Notes: generated by a model from the sequence alone, not told the origin. A stretch of DNA of 64,000 bases from an uncultured Bacteroidales bacterium (GCA_905234755.1 CAJOIT010000003.1:895139-959138), one strand, 5' to 3'; positions 15,874 to 53,404 are shown, counted from the stretch's first letter. Made by a program: numbers and translations.

Positions 15874-15917
15874 CTATTTCTGATACTTCCATATATGCTT
15901 CATCGTGACGAAGAGCA
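15874..15917 (-). repeat. Displaced copy of the 3' end of the SDR gene (direct repeat of 17420-17463)
   Basis: 40/44 identical; encodes LFVTMKHIWKYQK* vs LFVTMKHIGKYQK*. Confidence 0.88.
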
Positions 15918-15941
15918 GATGGCAAGATAAAAATTTACTAT

Positions 15942-16198
15942 TGTCCGCTAAAAAAGGAAACGTCATTCCGCAAAGCAGAGTGAACCGACTAAGGAACGTG
16001 TCGTGTGAACTCGCTTATGCGGAATCTCCTTGAATAATAATACTATAGGAGATTACGGATAGCAGTCTTCACAATGCTCCCCGTTCCGTATCGCATGTTA
16101 CGACTAGCTTCCGAAATGACAAGCACCCTTATTAATATCGTCATATAAATGTTTGATAATACTGTAATTATATGTATTATTCGATTTTTTAGCGGACA
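15942..16198. mobile_element. MITE-like unit with 14-bp TIRs enclosing REP-like copy B (15961-16120)
   Basis: tgtccgctaaaaaa (15942-15955) / ttttttagcggaca (16185-16198); inner element is the reverse-complement homolog of 58714-58870. Confidence 0.65.
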
Positions 16199-16270
16199 CC
16201 AATGATAAAAATTGAACTTCTGCCAATTCAAAGCTCAATAGTCGAGATTTTCAACATAAATGGAGGCAGT

Positions 16271-17383
16271 CTATAAGGCTATAATAAAAACATCCTTTGG
16301 ATTTTCATTCACTAATTCTGTACCAGGATAAGGGCCCGTATTATCCATACTAAGCCAAATATCGTCACCAGAGATATTGTGATATAACAAATCTATTCCT
16401 AATTCTTCATACAACACACTCTTTATCAAGCAACTAACATCGTTCCAACTTGTTCTATCTATTTTAATTTCTGGATACGCGTAACCATTTGACCAGATAA
16501 TACGAGCTTCGCCACCTATTGCTTTAATCAACGATGCTAACACAATTGCATAATCATCATTATCGCCTTGAAAATGTTGGATTGTTTCACTTGCCTTTGC
16601 AAAATACTCCTCACCTTGGGGATCTGAAACTTCCTGCCATTTTTCGTTTACAAATTTGCATATAGCACAAGACTGAATAAAAGTGCGATATTTATAATGC
16701 AAATCTGCTTTCTCCTTGAACTTATCATTCTCATTAATAATCTTAAGGGCAAAATCCCTAACTTCAAGATAATCGCATGCTTCTTTAATTTTTATACTAT
16801 AATAGTTTGAATTCTTCTTGTCAACAATATCTAAACAATAATTACCATCTGTGAAATCTGAAGAATCTTTAGATTCTATAGTTTTATCTTCCTTTTTGTC
16901 ATTATTCCTATCGATAGTATTTAAATCAGAATCTATTTCGTCAGACTTTGTGAGAATGTAAATCTCCGAAGGTTCTTCATTGATTTCGACTAAAACATAA
17001 ACGCCTTCTTTGTCATCATTATAAAGCGATTTTATTAGTGAAGCATAATCGAAGACCGCATTTCCCCAACCATAATGGTCGCCAGAAGCAAAACTTCCGT
17101 ACGACAAAAAAGCTATGCCTGCAATTAACCCTACAAATGTCAAAAACCAATGTGAAATTGCAACAAAATAAACTACGACAAACGTTGAAAGGAAGAGCAA
17201 TATTCTATCAAGATTGATTACCCAATCTGGATCTGGAAGAATTTTGGATAATAGTAGGAACAATGGTAACGTTACTAAAATACTGACATATTTTATAATA
17301 GTGTCAAATATGTTATTATCATCGGAATCGTCATTTTCCTGATCGTTATAAGTCGCCAATTCGTCGGTGTCTGAACGTCTCAT
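16271..17383 (-). CDS. Membrane-anchored transglutaminase-like protein, probably catalytically degenerate
   Basis: 3 TM helices; DPQGEEYFAKASET, GDNDDYA (family GDCDD), GYAYPE (family GHAYPE); AT-rich. Confidence 0.7.
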   Translation of the reverse strand: MRRSDTDELATYNDQENDDSDDNNIFDTIIKYVSILVTLPLFLLLSKILPDPDWVINLDRILLFLSTFVVVYFVAISHWFLTFVGLIAGIAFLSYGSFASGDHYGWGNAVFDYASLIKSLYNDDKEGVYVLVEINEEPSEIYILTKSDEIDSDLNTIDRNNDKKEDKTIESKDSSDFTDGNYCLDIVDKKNSNYYSIKIKEACDYLEVRDFALKIINENDKFKEKADLHYKYRTFIQSCAICKFVNEKWQEVSDPQGEEYFAKASETIQHFQGDNDDYAIVLASLIKAIGGEARIIWSNGYAYPEIKIDRTSWNDVSCLIKSVLYEELGIDLLYHNISGDDIWLSMDNTGPYPGTELVNENPKDVFIIAL

Positions 17384-17419
17384 TTCTTTTTTTGCATTAT
17401 ATTTATGTAAATCTATTAT

Positions 17420-18247
17420 TTATTTCTGATACTTACCGATATGCTTCATCGTGACGAAGAGCATCCAGTCGGGAGTATGCCTCAGCAAAGGCGTTGCAAG
17501 CCAGTTGATGAAACCCGGAGTCGAAGCCTTCTTGCCACGGAACATCTTGCGCAAAGCCTTCTTAACCAGCTTTTCGGGTGTGATGCTTACCGTTAGGGCG
17601 ACAGCCAGCTTGCGCAATTTCGGCGCAAGTCCGAACAAGGCCGTATCGACAGCGCCCGGAGCCATGGCAATTATGTTAACATCGTGAGGCTTAAGCTCGT
17701 ACCAGATTGATTTTGTAAAATTGTAGATGAACGCCTTGGTGGAATTGTAGGTCTGTATGCCAGGCATAGCCATCCATGCCGACATCGACGACATGTTAAG
17801 GATATACCCTTTCTTGCGCCTTTTGCCACAAATCTTCTGAGCCTTCTCCTCCTCGGTCAACTGTCTGTTAATCATTGCTTCACCAAACAGACGGCACATT
17901 TTTGCGACCGTCATCACATGCAGGTTGAGCATCAGCTCGATGCGCTTCATATTGGTTTCGCAGTACTGGTTGAAGAAGAAAACGCCAGCATCGTTTATCA
18001 GAATGTCAACCACCAAGTTGTTGTCCTGGCAGTATTTGAAAAGATTCTCGGCTGCATCGGTCTGACTAAGGTCGGCATAATGTGCGATTGTCTTCACGCC
18101 GTATTCCTTTGCCAGATTGTCGGCTACCTCCTGCAACTCCTTTTCCTGATTGCTTACCAGCAGAAGGTCGGTATGGTAGTCGCGAGCCAACTGCGTTGCA
18201 TATTGCAATCCTATTCCTGAACTTGCACCTGTTACGAGAGAGAGCAT
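17420..18247 (-). CDS. SDR family oxidoreductase (candidate hydroxysteroid dehydrogenase)
   Basis: TGASSGIG, YNSTK; last gene of reductase cluster. Confidence 0.88.
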   Translation of the reverse strand: MLSLVTGASSGIGLQYATQLARDYHTDLLLVSNQEKELQEVADNLAKEYGVKTIAHYADLSQTDAAENLFKYCQDNNLVVDILINDAGVFFFNQYCETNMKRIELMLNLHVMTVAKMCRLFGEAMINRQLTEEEKAQKICGKRRKKGYILNMSSMSAWMAMPGIQTYNSTKAFIYNFTKSIWYELKPHDVNIIAMAPGAVDTALFGLAPKLRKLAVALTVSITPEKLVKKALRKMFRGKKASTPGFINWLATPLLRHTPDWMLFVTMKHIGKYQK

Positions 18248-18267
18248 GATTTCGTTAATCCTCCTAT

Positions 18268-19539
18268 CTATTTCTTACTTTCTTCAACCGATTTCTTTGC
18301 TTTTGCTTCGAGCTTCTTGATTTCCTTCTGGATTCTTTCAGGAATCTTCTCGCCGTCGCGCATAACGCACTCGTGACACTTCATATCGAGAGTGTACATA
18401 CGGGCAACGCAGTAGTTGGAACGGCAGCAGCCAGCGTGGTAGTTAGGATTTTCCTGAACATGCTTTACGAAATCGGGATCCTTGATGAGCACATGCGCTA
18501 TCTGGAAAAGTTCGAAACCTTCGTCCATAATGCGCTGGCAGTTTGCACCCGACTGAACGCCACCGACATAAATCAGCGGAACATCCTTTATTTCCTTCTG
18601 GAAAATCTTGGCTTTCTCCATGAAATACAACTCCTTGAACGGCGATGTTGGCATAACCATAGCGGCAGCACCAGGGATATTGAGGGCAGCCTTGAGCCAC
18701 CAGAACGACTTCGGCATATAATAGGCCAATGTCTTGTGAGGCATAGCACCGCCAAGAATTGTCATCGGCGAAGCACTTACAGTACCGCCCGACAACACTA
18801 TGCCGTGAACCTTGTGCTTTGCAATTTCCTTCGCAACCTTGATGCCTTCCTCGATGCTTACGCCGCGCCAGCAGTCGTCCCACATGTTGGTCTTGACAAC
18901 AACTGCCATATCATCCTTTGCGTGAAGCATAACCTCGTCGAGGATTTCATTCAGGAACCGCACACGGTTCTCGAAAGAACCTCCGTACTCGTCGTGACGA
19001 TGGTTGGTGCGTTTGCCAATGAACTGCGAAATAAGGTAGGAATGTCCTGCGTGAATCTCAACGCAGTCGAAGCCAGCCTCGCGACAGAAGTCAACAGCCT
19101 TGCCGAAGTTCTTTACCAATTGCTTGATTTCCTCCACTTTCAGACGGCGGTGGAAAGTCGGTGAATACAAGTTGAAGCCGTTGGATGCACTTACAGGCAT
19201 ACAATGGCAGGTTGCACGGTGAGTCATATTTCCGCAGTGACCGAGCTGGATGCTGGCCTTTGCGCCTTCAGCGTGGATAGCGGCAGTAAGTTCGCGCAAT
19301 GCAGGAAGGCTTTCCTCGCGCACATATATTTGTCCGTTGAACGAAACACCGGTAATATCGACAGCGCAGTAAGCCACGGTTGTCATTCCGACGCCACCGC
19401 GAGCTACGCTAACGTGGTAGTCCATCAATTCTTTTGTCGGCATGTTGTCGCGTGCCATGTTCTCGAAAGCCGCCGAGCGGATGAAGCGGTTACGGAGAGT
19501 AATGGGTCCCAATTGGTAAGGAGTAAAAAGTTTCGACAT
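18268..19539 (-). CDS. NADH:flavin oxidoreductase (OYE family; candidate steroid 5-beta-reductase)
   Basis: LRNRFIRSAAFE, IQLGHCG, EIHAGHSYL, DEYGGSFENRVRF. Confidence 0.88.
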   Translation of the reverse strand: MSKLFTPYQLGPITLRNRFIRSAAFENMARDNMPTKELMDYHVSVARGGVGMTTVAYCAVDITGVSFNGQIYVREESLPALRELTAAIHAEGAKASIQLGHCGNMTHRATCHCMPVSASNGFNLYSPTFHRRLKVEEIKQLVKNFGKAVDFCREAGFDCVEIHAGHSYLISQFIGKRTNHRHDEYGGSFENRVRFLNEILDEVMLHAKDDMAVVVKTNMWDDCWRGVSIEEGIKVAKEIAKHKVHGIVLSGGTVSASPMTILGGAMPHKTLAYYMPKSFWWLKAALNIPGAAAMVMPTSPFKELYFMEKAKIFQKEIKDVPLIYVGGVQSGANCQRIMDEGFELFQIAHVLIKDPDFVKHVQENPNYHAGCCRSNYCVARMYTLDMKCHECVMRDGEKIPERIQKEIKKLEAKAKKSVEESKK

Positions 19540-19667
19540 ATGATTAACAATTCAATGATTTAACAATTTAAAAATTTAACTCGGTCTATAAATTATTCAA
19601 AAATTTAATGATTTAACAATTCAACCATTTAGTCAACGAAATAACCAAATCATTAAATACCAACTAT

Positions 19668-20051
19668 TTAATACTTATATTTACTTCCTGTATAATTACT
19701 GTTTCTCAAATATTTTATAAAATTACTAATTCCTATTGAAATATTAATAGCAGCTTCTTTTAGAATATTAAATTCATCTTCCGATATATAATTACAATCG
19801 TATGCGCGAGACAACTGGCTTCTTAATTCTCCACATGACCCTTTAGCTATAAATAAAAAATTTATAAATTCCTTATTACCTTCTCTTTCGAATCCTTCTG
19901 CAATATTATCCATGATAGAACCTGAAGATGATCTTATTTGAGAACAAAATCGAAGATCGTTTGCAAACTGTGCTTGATTTGTTATTTTATACACTTGCTT
20001 GCATATTTCTCGAGCCTGCTTCCATATATCTAAATCTTCAAAAACAGCCAT
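19668..20051 (-). CDS. Four-helix-bundle protein (TIGR02436 / 23S IVP family)
   Basis: FEDLDIWK, QIRSSSGSIMDNIAEGFER, IAKGSCGELRSQL; AT-rich, flanked by 8-mer tracts. Confidence 0.92.
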   Translation of the reverse strand: MAVFEDLDIWKQAREICKQVYKITNQAQFANDLRFCSQIRSSSGSIMDNIAEGFEREGNKEFINFLFIAKGSCGELRSQLSRAYDCNYISEDEFNILKEAAINISIGISNFIKYLRNSNYTGSKYKY

Positions 20052-20122
20052 AAATCCAAATCATTTTGAATCTTTAAATTACTCGAATCCATTAAATCTT
20101 TGAATCCTTAAATTTTTAAATC

Positions 20123-20923
20123 CTAATACATAAAAGGAATTATCCTCTTCAGCTTCTTCCCTTCAAATTCCGCTGCGAATTCCTTCTCGTACTTATGGTA
20201 GATGGAATTTGCACGGGGAACAAGGTTGCAGCACGAGAACCAGAAGAACAAGGCTCCTGCCCAAGAATAGGTAAGGATTGCAAAGCCGAGCCATTCGGTA
20301 ATTTCGCCGAAATAGTTGGCGCTGGTGACATACCTATACATACCTTTCTTTGGAAGATAATGGTTGGTATCGCCGGGCTTGCGCAGATGGCGGATAACAT
20401 GGTCGGAATTCAAGTTGATGAACATTCCAGTAAAGAAAATGATAGTTCCTGCGATAAACTGCCAGCTCGTGAGCCAATCGGTAGAATACAGCACGCTATA
20501 TGTTGGATTTGCAGGCGCAAGATGGAACAGCCAGTAGCCCTGGATATAGCCGTTTATCAAGTTCCAGATTACCGACATTGCCATTATCGCAATCGGCATC
20601 TTCGACTTGCCCTTGAGCAAGAACGGGAAAATGAACGAACGCTGGAAATAGTGCAGTTCGAAGAACAGGAAGAACAACAGGTACGGTACATTATACTTGA
20701 TTTCGGGCGCTGCAGTCCACCAAAGGTATAGCACTATAAAAAACACAGGGCACTCCATCAGCATCCACCCCCACTTGTTTGGCATTGCAGGTCCCCATTT
20801 TGCCGAAATCATCTTACCGTAGCCAGCATCGACGAAGTAAAGCGAAACGAACACGACCAACCCCACTGCTGCCATGATAATCAGCATCATATTGAAAAAC
20901 TCGGGCGCAAATATAGCTTCCAT
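20123..20923 (-). CDS. 3-oxo-5-alpha-steroid 4-dehydrogenase (steroid 5-alpha-reductase family)
   Basis: AGYGK, WMLMECP, HYFQRS, YVTSANYFGEITEW, NLVPRA, KRIIPF. Confidence 0.92.
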   Translation of the reverse strand: MEAIFAPEFFNMMLIIMAAVGLVVFVSLYFVDAGYGKMISAKWGPAMPNKWGWMLMECPVFFIVLYLWWTAAPEIKYNVPYLLFFLFFELHYFQRSFIFPFLLKGKSKMPIAIMAMSVIWNLINGYIQGYWLFHLAPANPTYSVLYSTDWLTSWQFIAGTIIFFTGMFINLNSDHVIRHLRKPGDTNHYLPKKGMYRYVTSANYFGEITEWLGFAILTYSWAGALFFWFSCCNLVPRANSIYHKYEKEFAAEFEGKKLKRIIPFMY

Positions 20924-21050
20924 CCTATTATTCTCCTAATTAAAAAGTTCGCAAGTTTATAAAAAAATTGCCAAATGGATAGTTTTTTAGTGGCGAAAGG
21001 TGGAAATTGGTGAACTATACTGAAACACCGAAGAGTTGAGCATTCTCCTA

Positions 21051-21425
21051 TCAGTCGCAAATCACCTCCCAGAAACCGCCTTTGTCGGGTCCTACACGAC
21101 GGAGATATTTGCCACGCATAGCGTTAATCATGCGAGACACGGCAGAAGGATGCAATCCCAATATATTAGCAATTTCGGCTTTAGAGATATATGGATCATC
21201 TTTCATCAATTGTAACATTGTACTTCTATTTTCTATTCGATTTCTGTTCGGTTTCTGTTCGGTTTCTGTTCGGTTTCTGTTCGGTTTCTGTTCGGTTTCT
21301 GTCAACTTTGGCACAGTTATTTTCAATATGAAATCATCGGTATGGTACTTTGGTTCTGCGACTCCATTTGCTATCAGTTCACGACACATACGGTCAACAC
21401 CTTCGCCATACTCCTTGACATAGTG
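21051..21425 (-). pseudogene. 5'-truncated AlbA/RecG-C (HATPase_c_4)-HTH protein remnant
   Basis: YVKEYGEGVDRM, low-complexity linker, C-terminal wHTH ending RVGPDKGGFWEV; no credible N-terminus. Confidence 0.7.
21230..21302. repeat. 11-bp tandem repeat tttctgttcgg (5 perfect + degenerate flanking units)
   Basis: Perfect units start 21241, 21252, 21263, 21274, 21285. Confidence 0.92.
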
Positions 21426-21613
21426 AAAAGAACTATCTACTTGGGGGAAAATTGATGTTAATACTGATTTGCACAATGAAACACAATAATATCTCATTCA
21501 ATTATACGACATACATAAGCCGTAATATATTGCTGAAGGACAAATTAAGTCTTCGCAAAAAGATTATACTACTAATAGAATATCATAATCAGAATTTTTC
21601 ATACTTTATTATA

Positions 21614-22648
21614 CTAACAACTAATCTTATGTTTATCCAAAGCAGACCTTATGCTCATCGCAACATGATATGCAAGATTAACAGGAACAGCATTACCTAT
21701 CATTTTGTATCCTAAATCCACATAGTCATAAATAAAGACAAAGTCATCAGGAAAACTTTGAACTCTCGCCACCTCACGCACAGTCATACGGCGATATAAA
21801 TGTTCTTTTCCTGGGACAAATCTTTGAAGATTTTTCTCTATTTTTTCCATTTTGGGAGCTTGTGGGTGCAACTGACATTGTCTTCCACTAGCCTGAACAG
21901 TAAAACCAGGTTCATCCCAAGAACGAACCCTATTCCTTGACATAAAAATTGGAGAATATGCACCAACAAAATATTCATTGTTTGCAACCGTACAATCATT
22001 TCCATTTGTACGATTATATTTTTTCGCAGGTATTGCCGAATATTGCAGGTCCCATATAGTTTCTCTTAATGTTGGCTTATGTTCCAATGGTCTTGGATAT
22101 TCAAAATCCCGAATTCCCAAATCCTTACGAAATCCTATATAAAAAACCCTATCGCGATCCTCAGGCACATCATAATCATTGGCATTTAACATTTTTAAAT
22201 TGACATCATATCCTGCATCATTAAATAATTTCATAAATCCACTTACGGCCTCTGAATGTCTTTTCGCAAGCATACCAGATACATTCTCAGCCACAAAAAA
22301 CAAAGGTTGCACATATTTTAATATACGTATGTATTCATAAAACAATTGTCCTCTTGAATCTTCTATACCTCTTAATGATCCTGCCTCACTCCATGATTGA
22401 CACGGAGGTCCACCTATAATTCCGTGAACTTTATATGAACCCTCCTTCAAACAATCCATATTGCTAGGAAATATATCTTCCTTTATTTTACGCACATCAT
22501 CTTCAATAAGATTAACATTTGGAAAATTTGCACGGAAAGTTGGACAAATATTATGATCGTATTCATTTGCAACAATCGTATTAAAGCCTGCTTTATGAAA
22601 GCCTAAATCAAGACCTCCAGCCCCACTAAATAGACTAATTATATTCAT
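21614..22648 (-). CDS. C5 cytosine methyltransferase, HaeIII/NgoPII-like (likely GGCC)
   Basis: [52 protein letters not shown]. Confidence 0.92.
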
Positions 22649-22649
22649 A

Positions 22650-23495
22650 TTACATTACAAATGTCACTAATTTAACATCTATATATTCCACTATATTGTT
22701 TGGGTTTTTAACTTGCGTATCTTCTATAATAAGATTTTGAATCTCATTGGCTTTCTGTATTAATTCGATTCTATTTTCAAATGAATCGAATTTACTTGTT
22801 GGAATTATCGCCATTAATTCAAAGTTATTATTTTTATTATACTCATGAATATACCGAAACACATTAAAAGGATGGGAAATTCCCCACATTCCTCTTGCTC
22901 GAAAATAAGTTATCCCTAGTGGATCTACAGCATTTATATGCGCCAATTCATTAGTTTGCTCTAATTCAAGCTGAGAATTATTAATACTTTGCTTTACTAT
23001 ATCAAAGATCCTTTCATAATATTCTTTATCAGCACAATAAATAGATCCATATACTAAGACAAGCGATTTTAAATTTCTTTCTTGAACACAGCCAATAGCG
23101 TAAATCATATCTTTGCTTCCCCAATTTCCGTTTTCTATCTGGCGACAATAACTAGATATTCTAGAATCATCCATATATAATTTTGCTTTAGGATAACTAC
23201 TATTTAAAGGGATACCTCCAATAGACTCTACCTTTTTCACCTCTATAGCATCTCCATTTCTTAAAATAGCATCAGGAGGATTATTTTTGCCTCCGCCATA
23301 AGAAAAGGCATTTTGATAACAATTAGCTTTTTGGATATTATTCAATCCGTATGCCCCTGAAAATGCATCTTTTATATAATCTTCTAAAGGTTCTCCCATT
23401 GCATGAAGACTATTATGCATGTTTTGTGAAGTACCAACTATTCTATTGTGATTATTCACAATGTTTATAATCCCAGTAATAATGTTATAATCCAT
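22650..23495 (-). CDS. NgoPII-family type II restriction endonuclease
   Basis: [38 protein letters not shown]; adjacent to cognate MTase. Confidence 0.88.
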
Positions 23496-23538
23496 AATAT
23501 TTCTAATTTCTATTAATTACTTTTTACATAATATGCAC

Positions 23539-24459
23539 TTATTTTTTCTCATTATTATCAACCGCATAAAACATTTCTAAATACACTTTATCTGAAGTAC
23601 ACTTCTCTATAGCACTTACCAATAGAGAACTATTTATTTCTTCTTGAAAAATATTTTTCAACTCAATTAAATTCTTAAAATTTGATCCATTTATAGCCTT
23701 CAAATAGTCAACAAGTATAGGTTCTTTTTCAAAAGGCGCGTCACTTTTTGACAATGCTTTACACAAGTCTTTTGTTGATTTAATGATATCACTTTTAAAT
23801 GCACACTTACACTCATTATCAAATCCTATTCTTAAATCTTCACGAATATCATTATCTAAAATAGCATTATACATATAATGCTGGAAAAACAAAAGTAAAA
23901 ATGAACAATTATAATTATAATAATTATTAATGATATCATTTTCTGATTGTTCGTTTTCTTTTTCTTTTTCTAATTCAAGAAGTTTAGTATATGCAGATTT
24001 CAAAATAGGATAACCATCGTTTCCAATAGGACGAGCCAACAACAACTTAGACAGATTACTTATATCTTGAGGCTCTTCTTCTAAACGCCTAAGCATAGTC
24101 ATAGTTTCTTCTTCGCGCAATTGCTTATACAACCCTCCAATATCACTTTGTATTTTTTTATCCGTATCTTCTACCTTTTTTGCTATTTCATTGATTGTTT
24201 TCTCTTTTTCAGAAATATCTTGACTTATTTCCAACACTTTATTTCGAAGCCAAGTAACATACACACCAAGGCCAATACCAACGGCACCAATAATAACAGA
24301 AAAAACAACCAACAATGTATTTACTGCGCCTATTTCATTCGCTATTGTTGAATTAGAAACATCAACTATATTTCTAATCGCATCTATATTGTCATTAAGA
24401 TTTTGAAGATAACCTAACGTATCTGACGAAATGTTAGTATTTAGTATCGATAAAATCAT
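23539..24459 (-). CDS. Hypothetical single-TM coiled-coil protein in R-M island
   Basis: 306-aa AT-rich ORF, one TM helix then coiled coil. Confidence 0.7.
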   Translation of the reverse strand: MILSILNTNISSDTLGYLQNLNDNIDAIRNIVDVSNSTIANEIGAVNTLLVVFSVIIGAVGIGLGVYVTWLRNKVLEISQDISEKEKTINEIAKKVEDTDKKIQSDIGGLYKQLREEETMTMLRRLEEEPQDISNLSKLLLARPIGNDGYPILKSAYTKLLELEKEKENEQSENDIINNYYNYNCSFLLLFFQHYMYNAILDNDIREDLRIGFDNECKCAFKSDIIKSTKDLCKALSKSDAPFEKEPILVDYLKAINGSNFKNLIELKNIFQEEINSSLLVSAIEKCTSDKVYLEMFYAVDNNEKK

Positions 24460-24664
24460 TTTATATTCAATTAATTATTTTACTGAGTTCCGCTATATTT
24501 ACGAAATATCTTCTACAATTATTGTCAAACTGCAAACATACTTATATTTATTAAAAGCCACAACAGCCAACATGTTTTCTTTTAAACAATTTATACACAA
24601 AACCATATCAAAAATCCCCTTCAAAATAATTTCACAAAAATGAAACTGGCTCAAATAAAAATCT

Positions 24665-24672
24665 TATCTTTG
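24665..24672 (+). promoter_or_regulatory. Bacteroidetes -7 promoter element for gcvT
   Basis: TATCTTTG matches TAnnTTTG ~47 bp before ATG. Confidence 0.65.
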
Positions 24673-24718
24673 CCCCAAATTTTTCAAAAATTCATTAAAA
24701 ACTTAAAGACATAACATA

Positions 24719-25849
24719 ATGGAAGAAATCAAAACCACTGCCTTCACGCAGTTTCACATCGCACAGGGCGCACAGATGGCACCTTTCGCTGGCTTCAACA
24801 TGCCAATCCAGTACACTAGCATAAACGACGAGCACATCTTCTGCCGCGAACATATCGGCGTTTTCGATGTTTCTCACATGGGCGAATTCTGGGTAACAGG
24901 CGACAAGGCTTTCGACTTCGTACAGAAGGTTACATCAAACAATGTTGCCGACCTCACTGATGGTAAGGTTCAGTACTCGTGCCTGCCTAACAACGATGGC
25001 GGTATCGTTGACGACCTGCTGGTTTACAGAATCAACGACAAGAAGTATTTCCTCGTTGTAAACGCTGCAAACATCGACAAGGACTGGAACTGGTGCATCG
25101 CAATAGCAGAAAAGATGGGCTTGAAGGTCGGACAGGACATTGTTAACGCATCCGACGAATACTGCCAGCTCGCTGTTCAGGGTCCTTACGCTCTGAAGGC
25201 TATGCAGAAGCTCACAAAGGCTAATGTAATCGACATGGAATACTACACCAACAAGATTATCGAATTTGCTGGCATTCCAGAAGTTATCTTCTCAACAACC
25301 GGTTACACTGGTGCTGGTGGATGCGAAATCTACGCAAAGAACCCGTACGCCGACAAGCTGTTGAAGGCTGTTCTCGAAGCAGGTGAAGAATTCGGTATCA
25401 GGATGATAGGTCTTGGCGCACGCGACACTCTCCGCCTCGAAATGGGATTCTGCCTCTACGGACACGACATCAACGACACCACTTCGCCAATCGAAGCAGG
25501 TCTTGGCTGGATTACCAAGTTTGTCGATGGCAACGACTTCACCAACCGCGCATACCACGAGAAGCTGAAAGCAGAAGGCACCAGCAAGATGTTGAAGGGC
25601 TTCATCCTCGTTGACCGTGGCATTCCACGTCCCGAATACCTCGTTTACGATGCTGAAGGCAACGAGATCGGTCATGTTACCTCGGGAGCAATGTCGCCAA
25701 TGATGAAGAAGGGTATCGGTATGGCATACCTCAACCGCGGTTTCTGGAAGGAAGGCACCGAAATCTACATTGACATCCGTGGCAAGAAGGTAAAGGCCGA
25801 AGTTAAGAAGACTCCGCTCTTCAAGGACCAGATGCCTCAGGTTAAGTAG
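24719..25849 (+). CDS. gcvT: Glycine cleavage system aminomethyltransferase T
   Basis: GVFDVSHMGE, TGYTG, GLGARDTLRLE. Confidence 0.96.
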   Translation: MEEIKTTAFTQFHIAQGAQMAPFAGFNMPIQYTSINDEHIFCREHIGVFDVSHMGEFWVTGDKAFDFVQKVTSNNVADLTDGKVQYSCLPNNDGGIVDDLLVYRINDKKYFLVVNAANIDKDWNWCIAIAEKMGLKVGQDIVNASDEYCQLAVQGPYALKAMQKLTKANVIDMEYYTNKIIEFAGIPEVIFSTTGYTGAGGCEIYAKNPYADKLLKAVLEAGEEFGIRMIGLGARDTLRLEMGFCLYGHDINDTTSPIEAGLGWITKFVDGNDFTNRAYHEKLKAEGTSKMLKGFILVDRGIPRPEYLVYDAEGNEIGHVTSGAMSPMMKKGIGMAYLNRGFWKEGTEIYIDIRGKKVKAEVKKTPLFKDQMPQVK

Positions 25850-25870
25850 TTATACATTTGTTTCCATATT

Positions 25871-25906
25871 GAGAATCTCGGAATCTCGGTTCCGAGGTTC
25901 TTTTTT
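25871..25906 (+). terminator. Intrinsic terminator after gcvT
   Basis: agaatctcggaa-loop-ttccgaggttct followed by T-run. Confidence 0.75.
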
Positions 25907-26008
25907 AAAATAAATGGAGACCTCAAATGTTCACTAATTCTTCCAAAGACTAAGTTTCACTCTGGGCGGCAATTATCAATTTTCAACTTTCAACTGTCAA
26001 TTAAACTT

Positions 26009-27004
26009 ATGGCAACCACCTCAAACTTTGTAGATTATGTAAAGATATACTGCCGGTCAGGAGCGGGCGGCGCAGGTTCGATGCACTTCCGCCACGAGAA
26101 ATTCGTGGAGAAAGGCGGTCCCGATGGCGGCAACGGCGGTCGTGGCGGACATATAATCCTGCACGGCACTACCAATGTGTGGACACTTCTGCACCTCAAG
26201 TACAACCGCCACATCTTCGCCGAAAACGGCACTAACGGAAGCGGTGCTTTATGCACTGGCGCAAACGGCAAGGACATTACCCTTGATGTGCCGCTCGGAA
26301 CTATCGCCCGCGACGAATACACCGGCGAAGTGCTCTGCGAAGTCACCGAGAACGACCAGGAAATTATCCTTCTCAAAGGTGGTCGTGGCGGACTAGGCAA
26401 CGCCGAATTCAAGACGGCAACCAACCAGGCGCCAAAATTCTCGCAGCCAGGTGAACCAGGAATCGAAAAGACCGTAATCCTCGAGTTGAAAGTGCTTGCC
26501 GATGTCGGTCTCGTAGGTTTCCCAAATGCTGGCAAATCGACATTACTGTCGGTTGTATCGGCAGCAAAGCCCGAAATTGCCGACTACCCTTTCACCACGC
26601 TAGTGCCTAACCTCGGCATCGTAGCCTACCACGACTACAAGTCGTTTGTAATGGCCGACATCCCAGGAATCATCGAGGGTGCAAGTCAGGGCAAAGGTTT
26701 GGGACTTAGGTTCTTGCGTCACATAGAGCGCAACTCTATACTGCTGTTCATGGTTCCAGCCGACACCAAGGACATCCGCAACGAATACGAAGTGCTACTC
26801 AACGAACTCACGCAGTACAACCCCGAACTGCTCGACAAGAAGCGCATCCTTGCTGTCACCAAGTGCGACCTCATCGACGACGAACTTCAGGAAATGCTCT
26901 CGAAGGAACTGCCCGAGAAAATTGAAACCGTCTTCATTTCGTCGGTAGCACACAAGAACATCGACAAGCTGAAAGACTTAATCTGGAAGGCATTGAACGA
27001 ATAA
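26009..27004 (+). CDS. obgE: GTPase ObgE
   Basis: [28 protein letters not shown]. Confidence 0.96.
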
Positions 27005-27008
27005 TCCT

Positions 27009-27740
27009 ATGAACAGACTCACAGAACTTCTCATCGACGAGCGGAATGCCAAGCGCAAAGGCGGAATTTACCACAAGACTCAGGTAAAACTCGCCTATAA
27101 CTCGAACCGAATCGAAGGCAGCAAGCTTACCGAGGAACAGACGCGCTACATTTTCGAGACTCGTACCATAGGATTCAAGGAACAAGAGGCCGTTCCCGTT
27201 GACGACATCATCGAAACCACCAACCACTTCGTCGCTTTCGACTATCTGATTGACACCATCAGCCAGCCTTTAAGCATTGACATTATCAAGCAGTTCCACA
27301 AGATTATAAAATCCAGCACTTCCGATGCGCAGAAACCATACTTCAATGTAGGCGACTGGAAAAAACTTGCCAACGAAGCAAGGACAACCCTGCCAGAAAA
27401 TGTTGACCGCGAAATGCACGACCTTTCGGACTGGTACGCCTCGCAGAAAAATGTAAGCATTGAAACTCTTGCAAAATATCACTTCTACTTCGAAAGCATA
27501 CATCCGTTCCAGGACGGCAATGGAAGAGTTGGCAGACTGATACTTTTCCGCGAATGCCTGCGCAACGACATTGTGCCTTTCGTCATCGACAACGACCACA
27601 AGACATTTTACTACAGAGGACTACGCGAATTTGAACACGCACCCTCATACCTTGTCGATACAATGAAGTCGGCACAGGACACCTACGCCGAATGGCTCAA
27701 GTATTTTTCACCAGAACTTCTTAACGACTTGCACGCATAA
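27009..27740 (+). CDS. Fic family protein
   Basis: HPFQDGNGRVGR; N-terminal NSNRIEG inhibitory motif. Confidence 0.92.
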   Translation: MNRLTELLIDERNAKRKGGIYHKTQVKLAYNSNRIEGSKLTEEQTRYIFETRTIGFKEQEAVPVDDIIETTNHFVAFDYLIDTISQPLSIDIIKQFHKIIKSSTSDAQKPYFNVGDWKKLANEARTTLPENVDREMHDLSDWYASQKNVSIETLAKYHFYFESIHPFQDGNGRVGRLILFRECLRNDIVPFVIDNDHKTFYYRGLREFEHAPSYLVDTMKSAQDTYAEWLKYFSPELLNDLHA

Positions 27741-28315: not shown

Positions 28316-28515
28316 ATAAGAAGCACCCACAATCACAACATATAGTTAATTCCAACATCTCTTTTCATCATTTTTCGGGATTGCACACCTATCGCAACAG
28401 CTGTACTTTTGCAAAACCAAAGTTAATTTACATTTATTTACACAAACTCAAAAAACGATGAACAAACTTTCATTTCAATAAAAACTGAATTTATAAGGCA
28501 TACAAAAATCATCGT

Positions 28516-48111: not shown

Positions 48112-48213
48112 CAGTCAAAATGTTTAGTTTTAACTTGCAAATGTAACACTTTAGAACGAAATTCTGGTTTAGAATTTTGTTAAATGGACAGTGCTAATTC
48201 CACACAGGCCACA

Positions 48214-48331
48214 AATTATCCCCGAACATACATTTTATCTATTTCGGGGACAAATAAGCAAACGCTAATTGTCCCCGAAATAATATTTTTGTGCTTCGGG
48301 GACAAATAAGACATATTTATTTGTCCGTGAA
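48214..48331. promoter_or_regulatory. Tandem palindrome array TCCCCGAA-N15/16-TTCGGGGA (~52-bp period) upstream of ATPase 2
   Basis: Two full units plus degenerate third half site ttgtccgtgaa; -7 box TAACTTTG at 48343-48350. Confidence 0.75.
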
Positions 48332-48374
48332 ATAAAAATTAGTAACTTTGCAGTCGAATAAGAAAAGTAATGCA

Positions 48375-49820
48375 ATGGAAAACATAATTGGCAGAAAAGA
48401 AGAAATAGAAGAACTTAACACCTTATATCACAGCAAAAAAGCAGAGTTTGTAGCTGTTTATGGCAGACGCAGAGTCGGAAAAACATACCTTATAAAAGAA
48501 TTGTTCCGCGACAAAATGGCGTTTTACCACACAGGAATGTCGCCAATTGATTCGGCTGGCAACAACCTGCTGCAAGACCAACTGAAAAGTTTCCACAATT
48601 CGCTGTTGCGTTACGGCATGGAAGACGAAAAACAACCAGAGACTTGGTTGGACGCATTCTTTTTGCTTGAGAAACTGCTTGAAGACAAAGACGATGGCAG
48701 CCGACAAGTGGTCTTCATTGACGAACTTCCATGGATGGACACACCTCGTTCTGGATTTCTGTCAGCATTCGAACACTTCTGGAACGGCTGGGGTTCGGGG
48801 CGCAATAACCTAATGCTTATTGTTTGCGGTTCTGCGGCTTCGTGGATTGAAAACAACCTGATCAACAACCACGGTGGGCTTTACGACAGGCTCACATACG
48901 AAATAAAGATTTCTCCTTTCAACCTAGTAGAATGTGAAGAGTTCTTCAAGGCGGCGAACATCAAGCTGTCGCGCTACGACATTGTACAAGCCTATATGGC
49001 AGTCGGCGGCATACCTTATTATTTAGGGTTCTTCCGCAAAGGATTGAGCCTCGGGCAAAACATCGACCAACTTTTTTTTGCAAAAACAGCCAAGTTGAAA
49101 AAAGAATTTGAACGCCTATTTGCCTCATTGTTCCCCAAACCGACAAACTACAGAAAAATTATCAGCCTATTAGCGACAAGACACAAAGGTTTTACTCGTG
49201 ATGAAATTACAAAAGCTACTGGCATCCAAAAAGGTGGCGGTCTATCCAAAATGCTTGCAGCCCTAGAAGCCAGCGACTTCATATCTCGCTATGTGCCGTT
49301 CGGAGTCTCTAAACGCGAAGAGCACTACAAACTTACCGACAATTTCTGCCTTTTCCACGAAAAGTTTCTTGCCGGAAACGAAATCACTGACACCGACTTT
49401 TGGGAAAAGAACCAAAACTCGCAGAAACTTTCTGCTTGGAAAGGCATTGCCTTCGAAGAAGTGTGCCTAGCCCATATACAGCAGATTAAGAACGCTTTAG
49501 GAATCGGTGCCATAACTTCGCGGGAATCGGCTTGGAGCATAAAAGGCGACAAGGAAAACGACGGCACACAAATAGACCTGCTAATTGACCGCGATGACAA
49601 TATTGTAAATCTTTGCGAAATGAAGTTCCTGAAGGATAAATTTACAATCAACAAATCCTACGATGAAAAACTGCGTAGCAGAACGCAAATGCTAATAGAC
49701 CGACTGCCCAAACGCGCCACAGTCCACCTTACCCTAATAACCTCATACGGACTGAAATACAACGAATATTCGGGAGAAATACAAAAACTTCTGACATTGG
49801 ACTCCCTGTTTACAGAATAA
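48375..49820 (+). CDS. AAA ATPase (archaeal-ATPase family) with wHTH and PD-(D/E)XK-like domain, paralog 2
   Basis: YGRRRVGKT, VFIDE, GGIPYYL, QIDLLID...LCEMK; ATG 48375. Confidence 0.9.
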   Translation: MENIIGRKEEIEELNTLYHSKKAEFVAVYGRRRVGKTYLIKELFRDKMAFYHTGMSPIDSAGNNLLQDQLKSFHNSLLRYGMEDEKQPETWLDAFFLLEKLLEDKDDGSRQVVFIDELPWMDTPRSGFLSAFEHFWNGWGSGRNNLMLIVCGSAASWIENNLINNHGGLYDRLTYEIKISPFNLVECEEFFKAANIKLSRYDIVQAYMAVGGIPYYLGFFRKGLSLGQNIDQLFFAKTAKLKKEFERLFASLFPKPTNYRKIISLLATRHKGFTRDEITKATGIQKGGGLSKMLAALEASDFISRYVPFGVSKREEHYKLTDNFCLFHEKFLAGNEITDTDFWEKNQNSQKLSAWKGIAFEEVCLAHIQQIKNALGIGAITSRESAWSIKGDKENDGTQIDLLIDRDDNIVNLCEMKFLKDKFTINKSYDEKLRSRTQMLIDRLPKRATVHLTLITSYGLKYNEYSGEIQKLLTLDSLFTE

Positions 49821-49826
49821 CGCACT

Positions 49827-50200
49827 ATTTATCCCCGAACGCATATTTTACACATTTCAGGGATAAATAAGCAAATGCTATTTATCCCCAAATAAATTTT
49901 TTAATGCTTCGGGGAAAAATAAGACATTCTGCCTGCGCATTACTATTGATGATTATACAAGTCTTTCGGATTGCTGCCTCTGGCAGCGAGCTAAAGGTTG
50001 ACCATAGGGCGAACTAAAGGTTGCAAAACCGAAAGGACAAAATTGGTAAATATTCAAGTGTAAACAATAATTATCCTCATAATACATTTTACCAATTTGG
50101 TATAATAAGACATATTTATTACTTCGCGAAAATACGAAACCTGTAACTTTGCAAATGAATAACCAAAGAAATGCTATGGAGAACATGATTGGCAGAAAAG
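49827..50200 (+). repeat. Diverged duplicate of ATPase palindrome array, promoter and first codons, interrupted by a 176-bp insert
   Basis: 49827-49927 matches 48214-48314; 50104-50200 matches 48305-48399; aataagacat repeated at 49918 and 50104. Confidence 0.82.
49961..50038. repeat. Modular REP-like hairpin, 2 modules
   Basis: tttcggattg[27 nt][23 nt]caaaaccgaaa. Confidence 0.8.
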
Positions 50201-52095
50201 CTGAGTCTGTGAATGTTTACGACATGAGAGATTCTAAAAGCACTTTGAAGAACCTTATGCAAGGTATGTATCTCATATCATTTATCTTAAATATAACAGA
50301 GATATTCACAAAACGGACAAGATATACAGGCAACATAAAAAAAGCAGTCTTATCTCTTTCGATAGCCATTCTTTCTGTAAGTTGTTTTGGGCAAACACAA
50401 ATCAGTACCGAAGCAGAACTGAGAACATTTGCAAGTGCTGTGAATAGTGGAACCACTTATGAAGGTCAAACTGTAACATTGGAAAATGATATTGCATTGA
50501 CTGCAGAATGGACACCTATTGGAAAGAGCGGCAAGCCATTCAAGGGCACTTTTGAAGGAAATGGGCATAAAATATCAAACCTTCATATAACACGTGATAT
50601 TGACTATACTGGCTTATTTGGATATATCAATGGCGGAACTATACAGAATGTAATAGTTTATGGAGAAATATCAGTTAATAATAAAAGATATATTGCCGGA
50701 ATATGTGGAAAAATAGAAAATAACTCCAAAATTGAAAATTGTCATTTTATAGGTGAAATTGAAGTAAAAAGTGGTGGTGGCGATAAATTTGTTGGTGGTG
50801 TTGTTGGTAGATGCGGTGATGAAAATAATGATACGACCAACCTGTCATATCCCCAAAGTTATATAACAAACTGCATAAACCTTTCTGATGTATATGGTTT
50901 TTCATCAGTTGGTGGTATAATAGCGTACGCAAGTTATAGAACAACTGTTGAAAATTGTTTGAATTGTGGCAACATAAATGGGTTTACTCCGTCCAATGGT
51001 AATAAATATTTTGGTGGAATTATTGGCGGATACTATGCTGGAATGCAGGTTTATAATTGTTTAAGTGCAGGTACTGTTAACAATGACAAACCATCGGCAG
51101 CAATAGGACTTGTTAGAGAAACTCTATTTCCAGATAGGTGTCCAAAAGTAAACATATATTACGACTATCAAAGAATGTGGAAAAATCAATCTAGACATGG
51201 TACAGCAAAAAACACCGACGAAATCATAGATGGAGCTTTATTGCCAAATCTTGAAGGTTGGGTATGCGATGGCGGCGGCTATCCTTATCCAAAGGACTTT
51301 ACATACGACAGTGTAATAATGGTTGCCAAGTCTTATGCTTTGTTCTCAAATGATGAGAAGTATGATGCAATAGAGACAGATTTCACTGTATCAAACATTA
51401 CTGGAACATCTTGGACATCAAGGCAAGGCAAAGTTTCAGTAAGAACACCTAATATTGTTCCCATTGATACTGACAGCGACACTTTAGTAGTGAATTATGG
51501 CAGCTATTATAAGAACATATTATTGAACATTGAATCTTATGACCCTCTTCCTATTCGACTATACTACTTCAAAGGAACCCCTAGTCCACATGGAAACATA
51601 TTGAAATGGGCTACCGCTTGGGAACAGAACAACTGTGAATTTGAAGTATTCCGATCAAAAGACTTGATAAATCCTCAATGGGTATCTGTCACCGAAACGC
51701 CTATATATGTGGGTTCCGACACCTATACAGGAAGGTCATACCAGCTCCTTGACAGGTATCCATACGACACCACTTACTATATGCTTGTGCAGACTGACTG
51801 TGACGGGACATTTGAAAAGTTTACTTCGGAATATATAGTATGCATACAAGATAAGTCCACAGATACATTCGAAAAACCTTATATTATCTTTGGTGACAGG
51901 CTTCAAATAGTGGGTGGCAGTGAAATCTGCAGAGTCTCCATTCTGAATGTTCTTGGACAAATAGTTGAAGAGTTTTCTCTGAATCCTTACCAGCAGCGAG
52001 AAATTTTATTTCATTTGCAAGGAACATATCTGATAACATCCGTTTATGAACATAACGGAAAGACAATAAGAGATACTGAAAAAATAGTAAAATAA
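50176..52095 (+). CDS. GLUG-motif secreted protein with T9SS-like C-terminus; start uncertain
   Basis: WTPIG..PFKGTFEGNGHKISNL, GLFG, VGG repeats, PLPIRL..F domain; signal-like IKKAVLSL...CFG|Q at 50335. Confidence 0.78.
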   Translation: MENMIGRKAESVNVYDMRDSKSTLKNLMQGMYLISFILNITEIFTKRTRYTGNIKKAVLSLSIAILSVSCFGQTQISTEAELRTFASAVNSGTTYEGQTVTLENDIALTAEWTPIGKSGKPFKGTFEGNGHKISNLHITRDIDYTGLFGYINGGTIQNVIVYGEISVNNKRYIAGICGKIENNSKIENCHFIGEIEVKSGGGDKFVGGVVGRCGDENNDTTNLSYPQSYITNCINLSDVYGFSSVGGIIAYASYRTTVENCLNCGNINGFTPSNGNKYFGGIIGGYYAGMQVYNCLSAGTVNNDKPSAAIGLVRETLFPDRCPKVNIYYDYQRMWKNQSRHGTAKNTDEIIDGALLPNLEGWVCDGGGYPYPKDFTYDSVIMVAKSYALFSNDEKYDAIETDFTVSNITGTSWTSRQGKVSVRTPNIVPIDTDSDTLVVNYGSYYKNILLNIESYDPLPIRLYYFKGTPSPHGNILKWATAWEQNNCEFEVFRSKDLINPQWVSVTETPIYVGSDTYTGRSYQLLDRYPYDTTYYMLVQTDCDGTFEKFTSEYIVCIQDKSTDTFEKPYIIFGDRLQIVGGSEICRVSILNVLGQIVEEFSLNPYQQREILFHLQGTYLITSVYEHNGKTIRDTEKIVK

Positions 52096-52234
52096 TTCAA
52101 AAAGAAACAGTACTAAATGCTGTCAATGTTGTCTCAATGTTGTCTGGATTTGAAATCCAGACAACATGAATATAAGGATTTTTAATCCGTTTAATAAGTT
52201 ATACCTACGCATTACAAATGCTGATACTCATGCC

Positions 52235-52332
52235 TTTCGGATTGTTGCCATTGGCAACGAGCTGAAGGTTGCTGCCTCTTGCTGCGAGCTAAAGGTTGCC
52301 TATAGGGCTAGCAAAAGATTGCAAATCCGAAA
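52235..52332. repeat. Modular REP-like hairpin, 3 modules
   Basis: tttcggattg[27][27][23]caaatccgaaa. Confidence 0.8.
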
Positions 52333-52367
52333 AACAACAAAAAATTTCATTATATACATCTATAAAC

Positions 52368-52403
52368 AAAACGACAGCCGACTATCGCCGACTGCTGTAA
52401 ATC
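52368..52403 (-). terminator. Terminator hairpin, duplicate of 53369-53404
   Basis: 33/36 identical; minus strand cagtcggc-gata-gtcggctg then T-rich tract. Confidence 0.75.
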
Positions 52404-52430
52404 TAAAACTTTAGCACGCAAATATCTTTT

Positions 52431-53279
52431 TTATTCTTTTTCCTCTTCCGTTGTTTGACTTAATTGATTAAGGTATGTCTTTGCATTCAACGGTGACACC
52501 ACAGATTTTCCTAGTTCTTTTTCCAATTCCATCCTTGCGGAACGCGCCACATTGCCACCTTTCTGTGCGACTGTAACATTTTCTTCAAATGTTTGCGGAT
52601 TATGCGATTTCGACAAATCTGTTGTTGCGGTTTCTGCAAGCATATTCAGAATCAACTCCGTATTGGTCATATTATCACGCAGATTTTCCTTCTTTAGACC
52701 TTTATACTTCTTGTACTCCTTTGTTGTCTTACCACTCCAGGCTTTAGTTATTATATCTGTCAACGACGCGAACTGCAGACCTTCTTCCATTCCACACCGC
52801 TTCCATTCATCTGTAAGAATCTTTCTGACTTCTATTGATTTCAGTCGCTGATTAATCCAATTGTCCGAATACCCAAGACGCTTATAGTCGTGCATTGCCT
52901 GTTCAATGGATAGTTCAGGGTCTTGCAATTGTTCAATTCTATTGTTTGCGACCTTTGCCATCCACAATTTGAAAGGTTCGGCTTTGGGTGACGGAATAGA
53001 TTGTATGATACGGAAAACACCTTCAAGAGAAGCGGCTTGCACTTGTCTTGACTTGCCATCAGCAGCAACCATACGAAGGGGGGTACAAATTGTACCCCAG
53101 TTGGAATTGAGTGCAGGATCTCGCATCCTCATTTTCTTTATATATTGTTTTACATCAGCACTTTCCGTAAGCACTTCCACCACATCGGCTACAGAAAAAT
53201 ACCATTTTTCCTGCTCATCGTCCCAAACGGAACGAATTTTCTTTTCCTCGAATAACTGTACTGCCTGCTGTTTGGTCAT
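52431..53279 (-). CDS. Bro-N domain protein (phage antirepressor-like)
   Basis: IRSVWDDEQEKWYFSVADV, IQSIPSPKAEPFKLW, ENLRDNMT. Confidence 0.9.
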   Translation of the reverse strand: MTKQQAVQLFEEKKIRSVWDDEQEKWYFSVADVVEVLTESADVKQYIKKMRMRDPALNSNWGTICTPLRMVAADGKSRQVQAASLEGVFRIIQSIPSPKAEPFKLWMAKVANNRIEQLQDPELSIEQAMHDYKRLGYSDNWINQRLKSIEVRKILTDEWKRCGMEEGLQFASLTDIITKAWSGKTTKEYKKYKGLKKENLRDNMTNTELILNMLAETATTDLSKSHNPQTFEENVTVAQKGGNVARSARMELEKELGKSVVSPLNAKTYLNQLSQTTEEEKE

Positions 53280-53368
53280 AAATTCAAATTTCTACAAAAA
53301 TAAGCAAAACGAGAATATGATTTAACAGAAAACGACAAATATTTTCATTGTGATTCTCAAGGCACAAA

Positions 53369-53404
53369 AAAACGACAGCCGACCATCGTCGACTGCCGTA
53401 AATC
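53369..53404 (-). terminator. Hairpin/terminator after the 53428-56604 gene
   Basis: Minus strand cagtcgac-gatg-gtcggctg followed by T-run. Confidence 0.75.

Follow-up and report, generated by a model that had tools for sequence, protein, structure and literature searches.

The window analysed here, 64 kb of one contig (G000:C3:895139–959138) from the genome of an uncultured Bacteroidales bacterium (G000; 3.31 Mb in 14 contigs, 42% G+C), contains several accessory genes that lie between short direct repeats with no recombinase gene beside them. With a probability a little above one half (about 0.55), these repeats are by-products of homology-dependent exchange with the DNA of relatives, not sites of a dedicated recombinase, and the cassettes that they flank are modules occupying variable slots. 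At one slot, next to a short-chain dehydrogenase/reductase (SDR) gene, an empty site in a relative, the relic of a neighbouring gene inside the insert and a mosaic host gene suggest that the apparent duplication consists of a donor copy and a recipient copy of the same gene end. Insertion with long target duplication was reportedly described by Nobusato et al. in 2000, and the entry of defence and accessory genes without a transposase or integrase has been a question since then. The present genome offers about 25 repeat-flanked modules, and the genomes of 38 other species of the same genus (G012, G011, G043 and others) were used for comparison. If the donor-and-recipient reading of the SDR site were general, the puzzle of long target duplication would need no new enzyme.

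The initial annotation had described four places at which single-gene cassettes are bracketed by duplicated host sequence, and all four repeat pairs were recovered by repeat search, together with a fifth one absent from its list. The SDR-tail pair (15875–15917 and 17421–17463, counted from the first nucleotide of the window) is 43 nt long and 93% identical; the AraC-tail pair (28937–28966 and 30675–30704) is 30 nt long and also 93% identical; the “operator” pair (48210–48399 versus 49823–49927 plus 50104–50200) is 81–86% identical; and the “terminator” pair (52365–52403 and 53366–53404) is 39 nt long and 90% identical. The fifth, REP-like pair (49958–50034 and 52229–52332) brackets a gene for a GLUG-motif protein. 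Copy numbers were obtained by searching each repeat against the 3.3-Mb genome with blastn-short. The SDR, AraC and operator repeats have their two local copies only (E-values of the pairs against the whole genome, 2e-11 for SDR and 3e-06 for AraC), while the terminator repeat gave 12 and 7 matches at E ≤ 1, including matches of 26–39 nt at at least six other loci, and the REP-like pair 41–42 matches. These last two pairs are therefore members of dispersed families and not duplicated local host sequence. The pairs thus do not represent one phenomenon, as had been supposed, but fall into three kinds: unique duplications of a host gene tail (SDR and AraC), the 5′ unit of an ATPase cassette itself, and dispersed families. 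Both gene-tail repeats end 0–1 nt from the host stop codon, in agreement with the earlier statement that the host stop is regenerated, and the accessory genes have indeed been added at gene ends without breaking the host genes.

The SDR slot has as its conserved left flank a GH78 α-L-rhamnosidase gene (13163–15859, plus strand; Pfam Bac_rhamnosid6H and related domains), whose orthologues in G012, G008, G003 and G011 are 90–92% identical, that of G012 being the closest (92%). After it comes copy A (15875–15917, minus strand), an orphan that repeats the final 43 nt of the SDR gene and has its stop codon outermost. On the other side of the insert lies the SDR gene itself (17420–18247, minus strand; Pfam adh_short), the last 43 nt of which (17421–17463) form copy B. 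In G012 the site is empty: the rhamnosidase stop is followed by 18 nt and by one SDR tail that runs on into the gene, and the left context of copy A, namely the rhamnosidase stop and 15 nt, matches this empty junction (locus L004). The SDR tail is likewise single in G003. In G011 and G008, two genes for β-helix proteins of the type IX secretion system (T9SS) are found between the rhamnosidase and SDR genes, with no integrative element.

The insert is not a clean single-gene cassette, contrary to the initial description, since it also contains the relic of another gene and a dispersed element of ~270 bp. Its main cargo is the gene of a 370-amino-acid membrane protein (16271–17383, minus strand) with a Transglut_core match in Pfam (E 4e-4) below the family cut-off. 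This gene converges on a relic of the region coding for a T9SS C-terminal sorting domain (15918–16276, plus strand), which is present in two pieces (15918–15935 and 16204–16276). The relic matches the gene of a 674-amino-acid protein of G011 by blastn (73 nt at 84%, E 8e-19, plus 21 nt at 90%) and, by tblastn, residues 617–639 of that protein, inside its Por_Secre_tail domain (residues 608–673). As the matched gene adjoins the SDR gene in G011 and G008, the insert derives from the chromosome of a relative, from the neighbourhood of its SDR gene. The element that splits the relic (15936–16203) contains internal hairpins, has 49 blastn-short matches in the genome and many copies in the congeners, and is flanked by a 10-nt duplication (15926–15935 and 16204–16213); it looks like a MITE-like element inserted into the gene relic with a 10-nt target duplication.

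The SDR gene is itself a mosaic. In a sliding comparison, positions 17420–17640 are 95–97% identical to G011 versus 88–92% to G012, and positions 17720–18170 are 96–100% identical to G012, so that a G011-like tract of about 220–300 nt occupies the 3′ end of the gene. One diagnostic site inside the 43-nt repeat is shared by copy B with G011 and G008 and by copy A with G012, G021, G003 and G002. Because of the empty site, the relic of a donor neighbour gene and the donor-type tract, the sequence suggests that copy B came from the donor and copy A from the recipient. The presumed illegitimate junction of the insert shows a possible 2-nt overlap, with G011 as a stand-in for the donor.

The repeats and their copy numbers, the empty sites, the relic, the SDR mosaic and the enrichment around ATPase genes are observed; in what order the steps occurred, that the host's recombination functions carried them out and how the DNA got in are matters that we infer. 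In the gene-tail cases the incoming DNA would have carried the same gene with extra DNA behind it. One crossover, a homologous one, would have taken place within the shared gene, and the other end would have been joined illegitimately inside the last 30–43 nt of the resident gene, so that the gene remained whole and the resident tail ended up beyond the insert, as an orphan copy. At the SDR slot, a G012-type chromosome would have received a fragment of a G011-type arrangement that already held the cargo gene, with the homologous crossover within the SDR gene and the other end joined in the resident SDR tail, 43 nt before the stop. The empty site of G012, the relic and the mosaic SDR gene fit one homologous crossover and one illegitimate join. 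The two repeat copies would differ (by 7%, allelic differences) because one derives from the donor allele and the other from the recipient allele; the resemblance of the two parental sequences would not extend past the coding sequence, and the match between the copies would accordingly stop at the stop codon. The position of the boundaries at stop codons presumably reflects this end of allelic similarity and also the loss of junctions that fall in reading frames, coding sequence making up 89% of the genome.

The AraC slot lies between a PAP2 gene and an AraC-family regulator gene (30675–31331, minus strand; Pfam HTH_18), whose last 30 nt (30675–30704) are the in-gene repeat copy. The orphan copy (28937–28966, minus strand) ends at the stop codon and is followed by a short-unit tandem array resembling those that adjoin the AraC stop codons of G003 and G051 downstream. 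Between the copies lie a gene for an AAA+ ATPase (28969–30411, minus strand; Pfam ATPase_2; PADLOC PDC-S27, E 1e-190) and, upstream of it, two tandem operator-like palindromic units of 49 nt (30452–30551, minus strand; repeat family D10). The AraC gene is 94% identical to that of G043, 91% to that of G010 and 71–73% to those of five other congeners (71% for G051), whereas both flanks of the slot are nearest to G051 (93–94%, versus 84–87% for G043), and the DNA 3′ of the AraC stop is wholly different among G000, G043 and G010. A G043-like AraC allele inside G051-like flanks points to a donor-type tract at the homologous anchor, as in the SDR gene. The ATPase gene with its two palindromic units (28968–30567) has 80%-identical counterparts at another locus, one common to G043 and G010, and these counterparts have the same palindromes upstream and no flanking repeat; the palindromes therefore travel with the gene, and their origin as hairpins of the target was rejected for the same reason. 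Beside the orphan AraC tail there are two further dispersed intergenic repeats (28332–28552 and 28748–28935), whose copies, 80–88% identical, occur in G000 and many congeners. Degenerate arrays of 7–8-nt units that start right at stop codons are found at 28900–28936 and also after the AraC stop in loci L022 and L023.

The remaining pairs belong to a slot between MutL and a conserved right flank. A second ATPase gene (48348–49820, plus strand; Pfam ATPase_2; PADLOC PDC-S27, E 3e-202) is preceded and overlapped by a unit (P_A, 48210–48399, plus strand) in which two palindromic units are joined to the promoter region and initial codons of the gene. A second copy of this unit (P_B, 49823–50200, plus strand) starts 2 nt past the ATPase stop, is split by the REP-like element at 49958–50034 and still contains, in frame, a relic of the ATPase start. 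The “operator” that had been taken for host sequence is thus the upstream palindromes and start codons of the ATPase gene itself. P_B leads into an open frame for the GLUG-motif protein (50149–52095, plus strand; weak match to Pfam GLUG), the first ~11–17 codons of which are the ATPase relic, the real start of the gene being likely, from its sequence, a lipoprotein-type signal further in. Then follow the second REP-like copy and the first terminator hairpin (52229–52332 and 52365–52403, together 52229–52403, with no strand assigned), a Bro-N domain gene (52431–53279, minus strand; Pfam; PADLOC PDC-S13, E 2e-127) and the second terminator hairpin (53366–53404, minus strand), which is downstream of a 1064-amino-acid Lcl_C/CUB gene (53428–56622). 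Rfam gave no match at gathering score over the whole window, and the dispersed elements therefore represent no known RNA families. Several slots of G000, G043 and G010 are bordered by members of a conserved terminator-hairpin family (stem GTAG...CGCAAT / ATTGCG...CTAC; L041:1297–1513; L150, L151).

In G010 the MutL slot is empty: ~150 bp, with a single member of the terminator family, separate the right flank from the MutL side. G021 has the same arrangement as G000 from MutL through the GLUG-motif gene. In G050 the ATPase gene and P are followed directly by the sequence that in G000 is found downstream of the GLUG-motif gene, and on another contig of G050 a unit of P, relic and GLUG-motif gene stands next to the right flank of the slot. 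G051 has a single terminator in place of the terminator–Bro-N–terminator of G000, with no Bro-N gene, and the latter unit is found elsewhere, in other contexts, in G043 (95%) and G010 (91%). These comparisons and the stump of the ATPase start in P_B lead to the conclusion that the second ATPase and Bro-N cases are neighbouring modules with related ends and not duplicated host DNA. The upstream unit of the ATPase gene would open both of two adjoining modules, of which the second keeps the ATPase stump only, and any module in this slot would have two flanking hairpins because every module is closed by a hairpin from a single dispersed terminator family.

As an alternative, recombination between the two repeats could free a circle made of the cargo and one repeat, which would re-enter an empty site, in the same cell or a different one, through the 30–200 nt of homology. 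The product of such a Campbell-type integration would be identical in structure to that seen, single-copy sites are found for the SDR tail (G012), the Bro-N terminator (G051) and, in G010 and G050, the ATPase unit P, and both terminator–gene–terminator and P–gene–P units are met again in other surroundings; for restriction-modification (RM) units, a comparable life cycle in which they are amplified and released has been proposed (PMC2853133). Still, we regard this route, one of the two favoured initially, as unlikely: a crossover within 43 nt cannot bring in the ~220–300-nt donor-type tract beside copy B, the circle gives no reason for a neighbour-gene relic in the insert, and the origin of the first duplication is left unexplained. 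For the general capture route postulated for these genes, homology-driven exchange, which is of a known kind, is the best reading.

The pattern is not confined to the window, as had been anticipated. When the genome was compared with itself by BLAST, matches of up to 200 nt spaced 200–5000 nt apart were direct in 177 cases versus 7 inverted, with 63, 66, 28 and 20 direct versus 0, 2, 3 and 2 inverted matches in the consecutive spacing bins of this range, whereas at 20–50 kb the counts were 44 and 38. A k-mer search at spacings of 150–6000 nt gave 919 direct versus 25 inverted pairs (473 versus 23 after clustering), totals that include tandem paralogues and within-gene repeats. Restriction to spans of at most 140 nt and spacings of at least 400 nt left 268 pairs, to at most two genomic copies 138, and to at most three repeat clusters nearby with at least 80% identity 61. 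From these pairs and the BLAST matches, twenty loci were picked by eye for annotation; pairs with both copies in a single gene, or in evident paralogues, were omitted. Five of them contain ATPase_2 genes and five AAA_14 plus DUF4143 genes; the others comprise an AbiEii/DUF6088 pair, a Fic gene with a gene for an HD-CE/HATPase protein, a β-lactamase-family gene, OmpA, a group of M20, Bro-N and DUF6155 genes, a LuxR gene, an M14 peptidase gene and genes of unknown type. In addition, the 500 nt upstream of every gene were compared with the 500 nt downstream, and at a score of at least 22 direct repeats flank 65 of the 2479 genes and inverted repeats 6. The gene-tail class comprises six members (SDR, AraC, L025, L027, L028 and L041), whose repeats end 0–3 nt past the host stop in five cases and ~100 nt past it in L041. 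Besides SDR and AraC, the gene-tail cases include the host and cargo combinations urocanase/β-lactamase-family, GT2/OmpA and DUF1848/M20.

A second hot spot, between an acyl-CoA dehydrogenase gene and a TPR gene (L038 and L045–L053; G000:C1:513000–518000 and its counterparts), has a more regular layout. Copies of one palindromic unit (P) part the modules in six species, in the orders P–ATPase–P, P–other genes–P–ATPase–P and P–ATPase–P–amidotransferase–P, and the modules include ATPase_2, amidotransferase and defence-like genes (MBL-fold, PD-(D/E)XK and transglutaminase-like). G010 and G050 have a lone palindromic unit there and no ATPase gene. The content also varies by species at the three slots of the window, rhamnosidase|SDR, PAP2|AraC and MutL|right flank. 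A role of the downstream palindrome as promoter or operator of the next gene was rejected at L038 and L042, where the next gene is convergent.

PDC-S27 (ATPase_2), PDC-S01 (DUF4143) and PDC-S13 (Bro-N) are candidate defence genes by their full-length PADLOC matches, those of PDC-S01 being at L026 and L041 (E 1e-99 and 6e-181). By title and abstract, the papers listed for the three families are defence-system surveys, with no mobility study among them, and a whole-word search for DUF4143 found, at the same level, nothing on mobility. Searches of the ATPases against NCBIfam and the sequences of solved structures gave nothing beyond the Walker-type ATPase match. In the C-terminal part of the ATPase_2 alignment (A1), residues D398, E412 and K414 are invariant (D...ExK), a putative nuclease motif. 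From other genomes, in a search that found 594 relatives, 79 ATPase_2 loci were collected, 62 of them with 600 nt on both sides, and 21 of these 62 have direct repeats scoring at least 22, versus 4 with inverted repeats and none of 306 mismatched flank pairs. In 11 of the 21 flanked loci the repeat contains a perfect palindrome with arms of at least 8 nt; the upstream copy lies mostly ~20–290 nt from the start codon (in one case at about −500), and the downstream copy is at most ~25 nt from the stop in nine.

Several observations weigh against homology-dependent exchange as the whole explanation. In G000, 9 of 11 PDC-S27 genes and 6 of 15 PDC-S01 genes are repeat-flanked, compared with the 65 of 2479 overall; the far junction lies 0–10 nt after the cargo stop in six cases (including the AraC-site and second ATPases, L040, L041 and L043); and the cargo is co-oriented with the host gene in all six members of the gene-tail class. 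Random scars do not account for these regularities, and the array-like layout of the acyl-CoA dehydrogenase|TPR slot is the chief observation that recombination scars leave unexplained. In the AbiE module (L031) both copies of the repeat, perfect hairpins of 34 nt, lie within DNA found in G000 only; the module is present in no relative, its place being taken in G043 and G010 by 76–81 bp with another hairpin. Regarding the SDR slot, a donor of the cargo was sought among the 38 congeners and not found, the best match being that of G011 at 59–70% amino-acid identity, so that G011 is a proxy; the illegitimate junction, with its 2 nt of possible microhomology, is accordingly tentative; and the assignment of the copies to donor and recipient within the 43-nt repeat depends on one site. 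Sequence mosaicism runs throughout this genus, so the donor-type tract beside copy B could stem from a separate recombination event. Finally, the orphan AraC tail resembles the allele type of G000 itself and not that of G051. Empty alleles with one repeat copy, which had been predicted, were found for the SDR tail and the Bro-N terminator but not, in any of the 38 congeners, for the AraC site.

The strong link of these two candidate defence ATPase families, both very common, to flanking palindromic repeats may mean that something more specific is at work in them. It is conceivable, if rather doubtful, that PDC-S27 and PDC-S01 are autonomous one-gene elements, their own ATPase-nucleases making staggered cuts, spaced by tens to hundreds of bases, at paralogue-specific palindromes, with fill-in duplicating the target, and that the duplicated sites give rise to integron-like arrays of alternating sites and modules that capture unrelated genes with no classical recombinase. 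The enrichment in G000 and in the other genomes, the position of the far junction just past the ATPase stop and the conserved D...ExK motif speak for this, as does the presence of a cassette 80% identical to that of the AraC site, with the same palindromes, at a different locus in G043 and G010. However, these homologues are without a flanking repeat, the same footprint surrounds cargo with no ATPase (the SDR slot, the β-lactamase-family gene, OmpA and the M20/Bro-N group), the repeat in most ATPase cases is the palindromic unit of the cassette and not target DNA, and the activity of both families is putative.

Blocks of identity that run to the end of a target gene are the classical signature of integrase insertion at gene 3′ ends. 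The gene-tail repeats have this property and the genome encodes four tyrosine recombinases (PF00589), the nearest ~82 kb away, so that the modules could be non-autonomous att-flanked elements moved by a recombinase encoded elsewhere, like cis-mobilizable elements (CIMEs) or pdif modules. We consider this very improbable. Eleven repeats compared with each other gave a best pairwise score of 11 versus a shuffle maximum of 10, that is, no common motif or core; repeat lengths spread from 22 to 217 nt across the genome loci; and the larger alternative inserts of G011 and G008 are the two genes for secreted β-helix proteins and not an integrative element. The absence of a linked recombinase, noted from the start, holds, recombinase or transposase domains being found in none of the 48 gene calls of the window, but the action of a recombinase in trans, which had been offered as the other possible route, is disfavoured by the lack of a shared motif.

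Chance similarity or an assembly artefact is the least credible explanation. For the terminator and REP-like pairs, two members of a dispersed family ~1–2 kb apart need no local event. The SDR and AraC pairs are, on the contrary, unique and have the E-values given above, and the excess of direct over inverted repeats at 200–5000 nt stands against chance as well; for these two gene-tail pairs the explanation is largely refuted. Regarding the assembly, 20 public sequencing runs, all stored as contigs, contain no more than 0.21–0.33 of the sampled words, and a contig from one run spans the junction between the cargo and the SDR gene with 5 differences in 774 nt, although this run may be the source sample of the genome itself. 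Among the joints listed for contigs X1, X2, X3 and X5 over positions 13000–32000, none spans either repeat pair and there is no back-joint, the contigs being short and their cover over the inserts thin.

Several known systems resemble parts of this picture. Furuta, Abe and Kobayashi (2010; PMC2853133) define insertion with long target duplication for RM genes as inserts without mobility genes flanked by repeats of more than 30 bp, some of which extend over the 3′ end of a gene, and do not decide on a mechanism. The modules described here share with it the direct repeats, an insert of a few kb with no mobility gene, defence-type cargo, overlap of repeats with a gene 3′ end and, at the SDR slot, a unique repeat with one copy at the empty site of a relative. 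Repeat length is 43 nt for SDR, a borderline 30 nt for AraC and 27–217 nt at the other genome loci; uniqueness holds for the SDR, AraC and P pairs and fails for the terminator and REP-like pairs; and a single-copy empty relative is found for SDR and the Bro-N terminator, and for neither AraC nor the AbiE module. They differ from it in their cargo, which consists of PDC-S27, PDC-S01 and PDC-S13 candidates, the membrane protein and others instead of RM genes, and in the neighbour-gene relic and donor-type tract of one insert; moreover, the only RM island of the window has no flanking repeat.

A one-sided homologous anchor combined with an illegitimate join that leaves displaced orphans is proposed by Kirchberger et al. 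(2017; PMC5361080) for arrays of type VI secretion system (T6SS) effector–immunity genes, and the orphan tips of Rhs and contact-dependent inhibition (CDI) systems are cited there as parallel cases. As in those arrays, a conserved gene serves here as the one-sided anchor, new DNA stands behind it and the former 3′ part lies displaced farther downstream, an orphan, with no integrase involved; unlike them, 30–76 nt of the old gene end remain instead of a whole orphan gene, and the hosts are ordinary metabolic or regulatory genes and not polymorphic toxins. The slots also resemble the core-gene-flanked hot spots of defence and accessory genes, lying between conserved genes with a species-specific content that includes the empty form, but many modules are repeat-flanked, which plain double-crossover replacement at hot spots would not produce. 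Integron cassette arrays and the pdif modules of Acinetobacter likewise consist of modules that are poor in promoters, often hold a single gene and have the orientation of the upstream gene, and they share with the acyl-CoA dehydrogenase|TPR slot the alternation of sites and modules, with palindromic sites that differ between modules. Unlike integrons, the arrays have no integron integrase gene beside them, no PF00589 match is found in the window and no conserved site core was seen among the 11 repeats, the integron core consensus itself not having been scanned for. Unlike both systems, the same site stands on both sides of a module instead of one site per module, and the palindromes, with arms of 9–13 nt and spacers of 12–28 nt, are unlike dif-type sites. 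Finally, in contrast to CIME-like elements, no integrase-bearing element occupies the SDR site of G011 and G008, the only slot checked in this respect.

The RM island mentioned above (21614–24459) is of the NgoPII type, contains a C5 methylase gene, the NgoPII endonuclease gene and a gene for 306 amino acids with no assigned function, and lies between a steroid dehydrogenase-like gene and gcvT; its best flanking direct repeat scores 11, and neither the island nor four other accessory-looking genes of the window have a flanking repeat scoring above 12. A tandem array of at least six copies of an 11-nt unit (21219–21306) is found in or beside a 148-amino-acid open frame (family D3). Two tandem genes for KAS III-like and SDR fusion proteins (56862–60776) are followed by two tandem cyclophilin genes (60776–62318), both being paralogue pairs. 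Elsewhere in the genome, at L035 (G000:C3:595500–599000), a LuxR-type gene lies between promoter-like direct repeats of 53 nt and adjoins one of the four tyrosine recombinase genes (C3:594546–595073).

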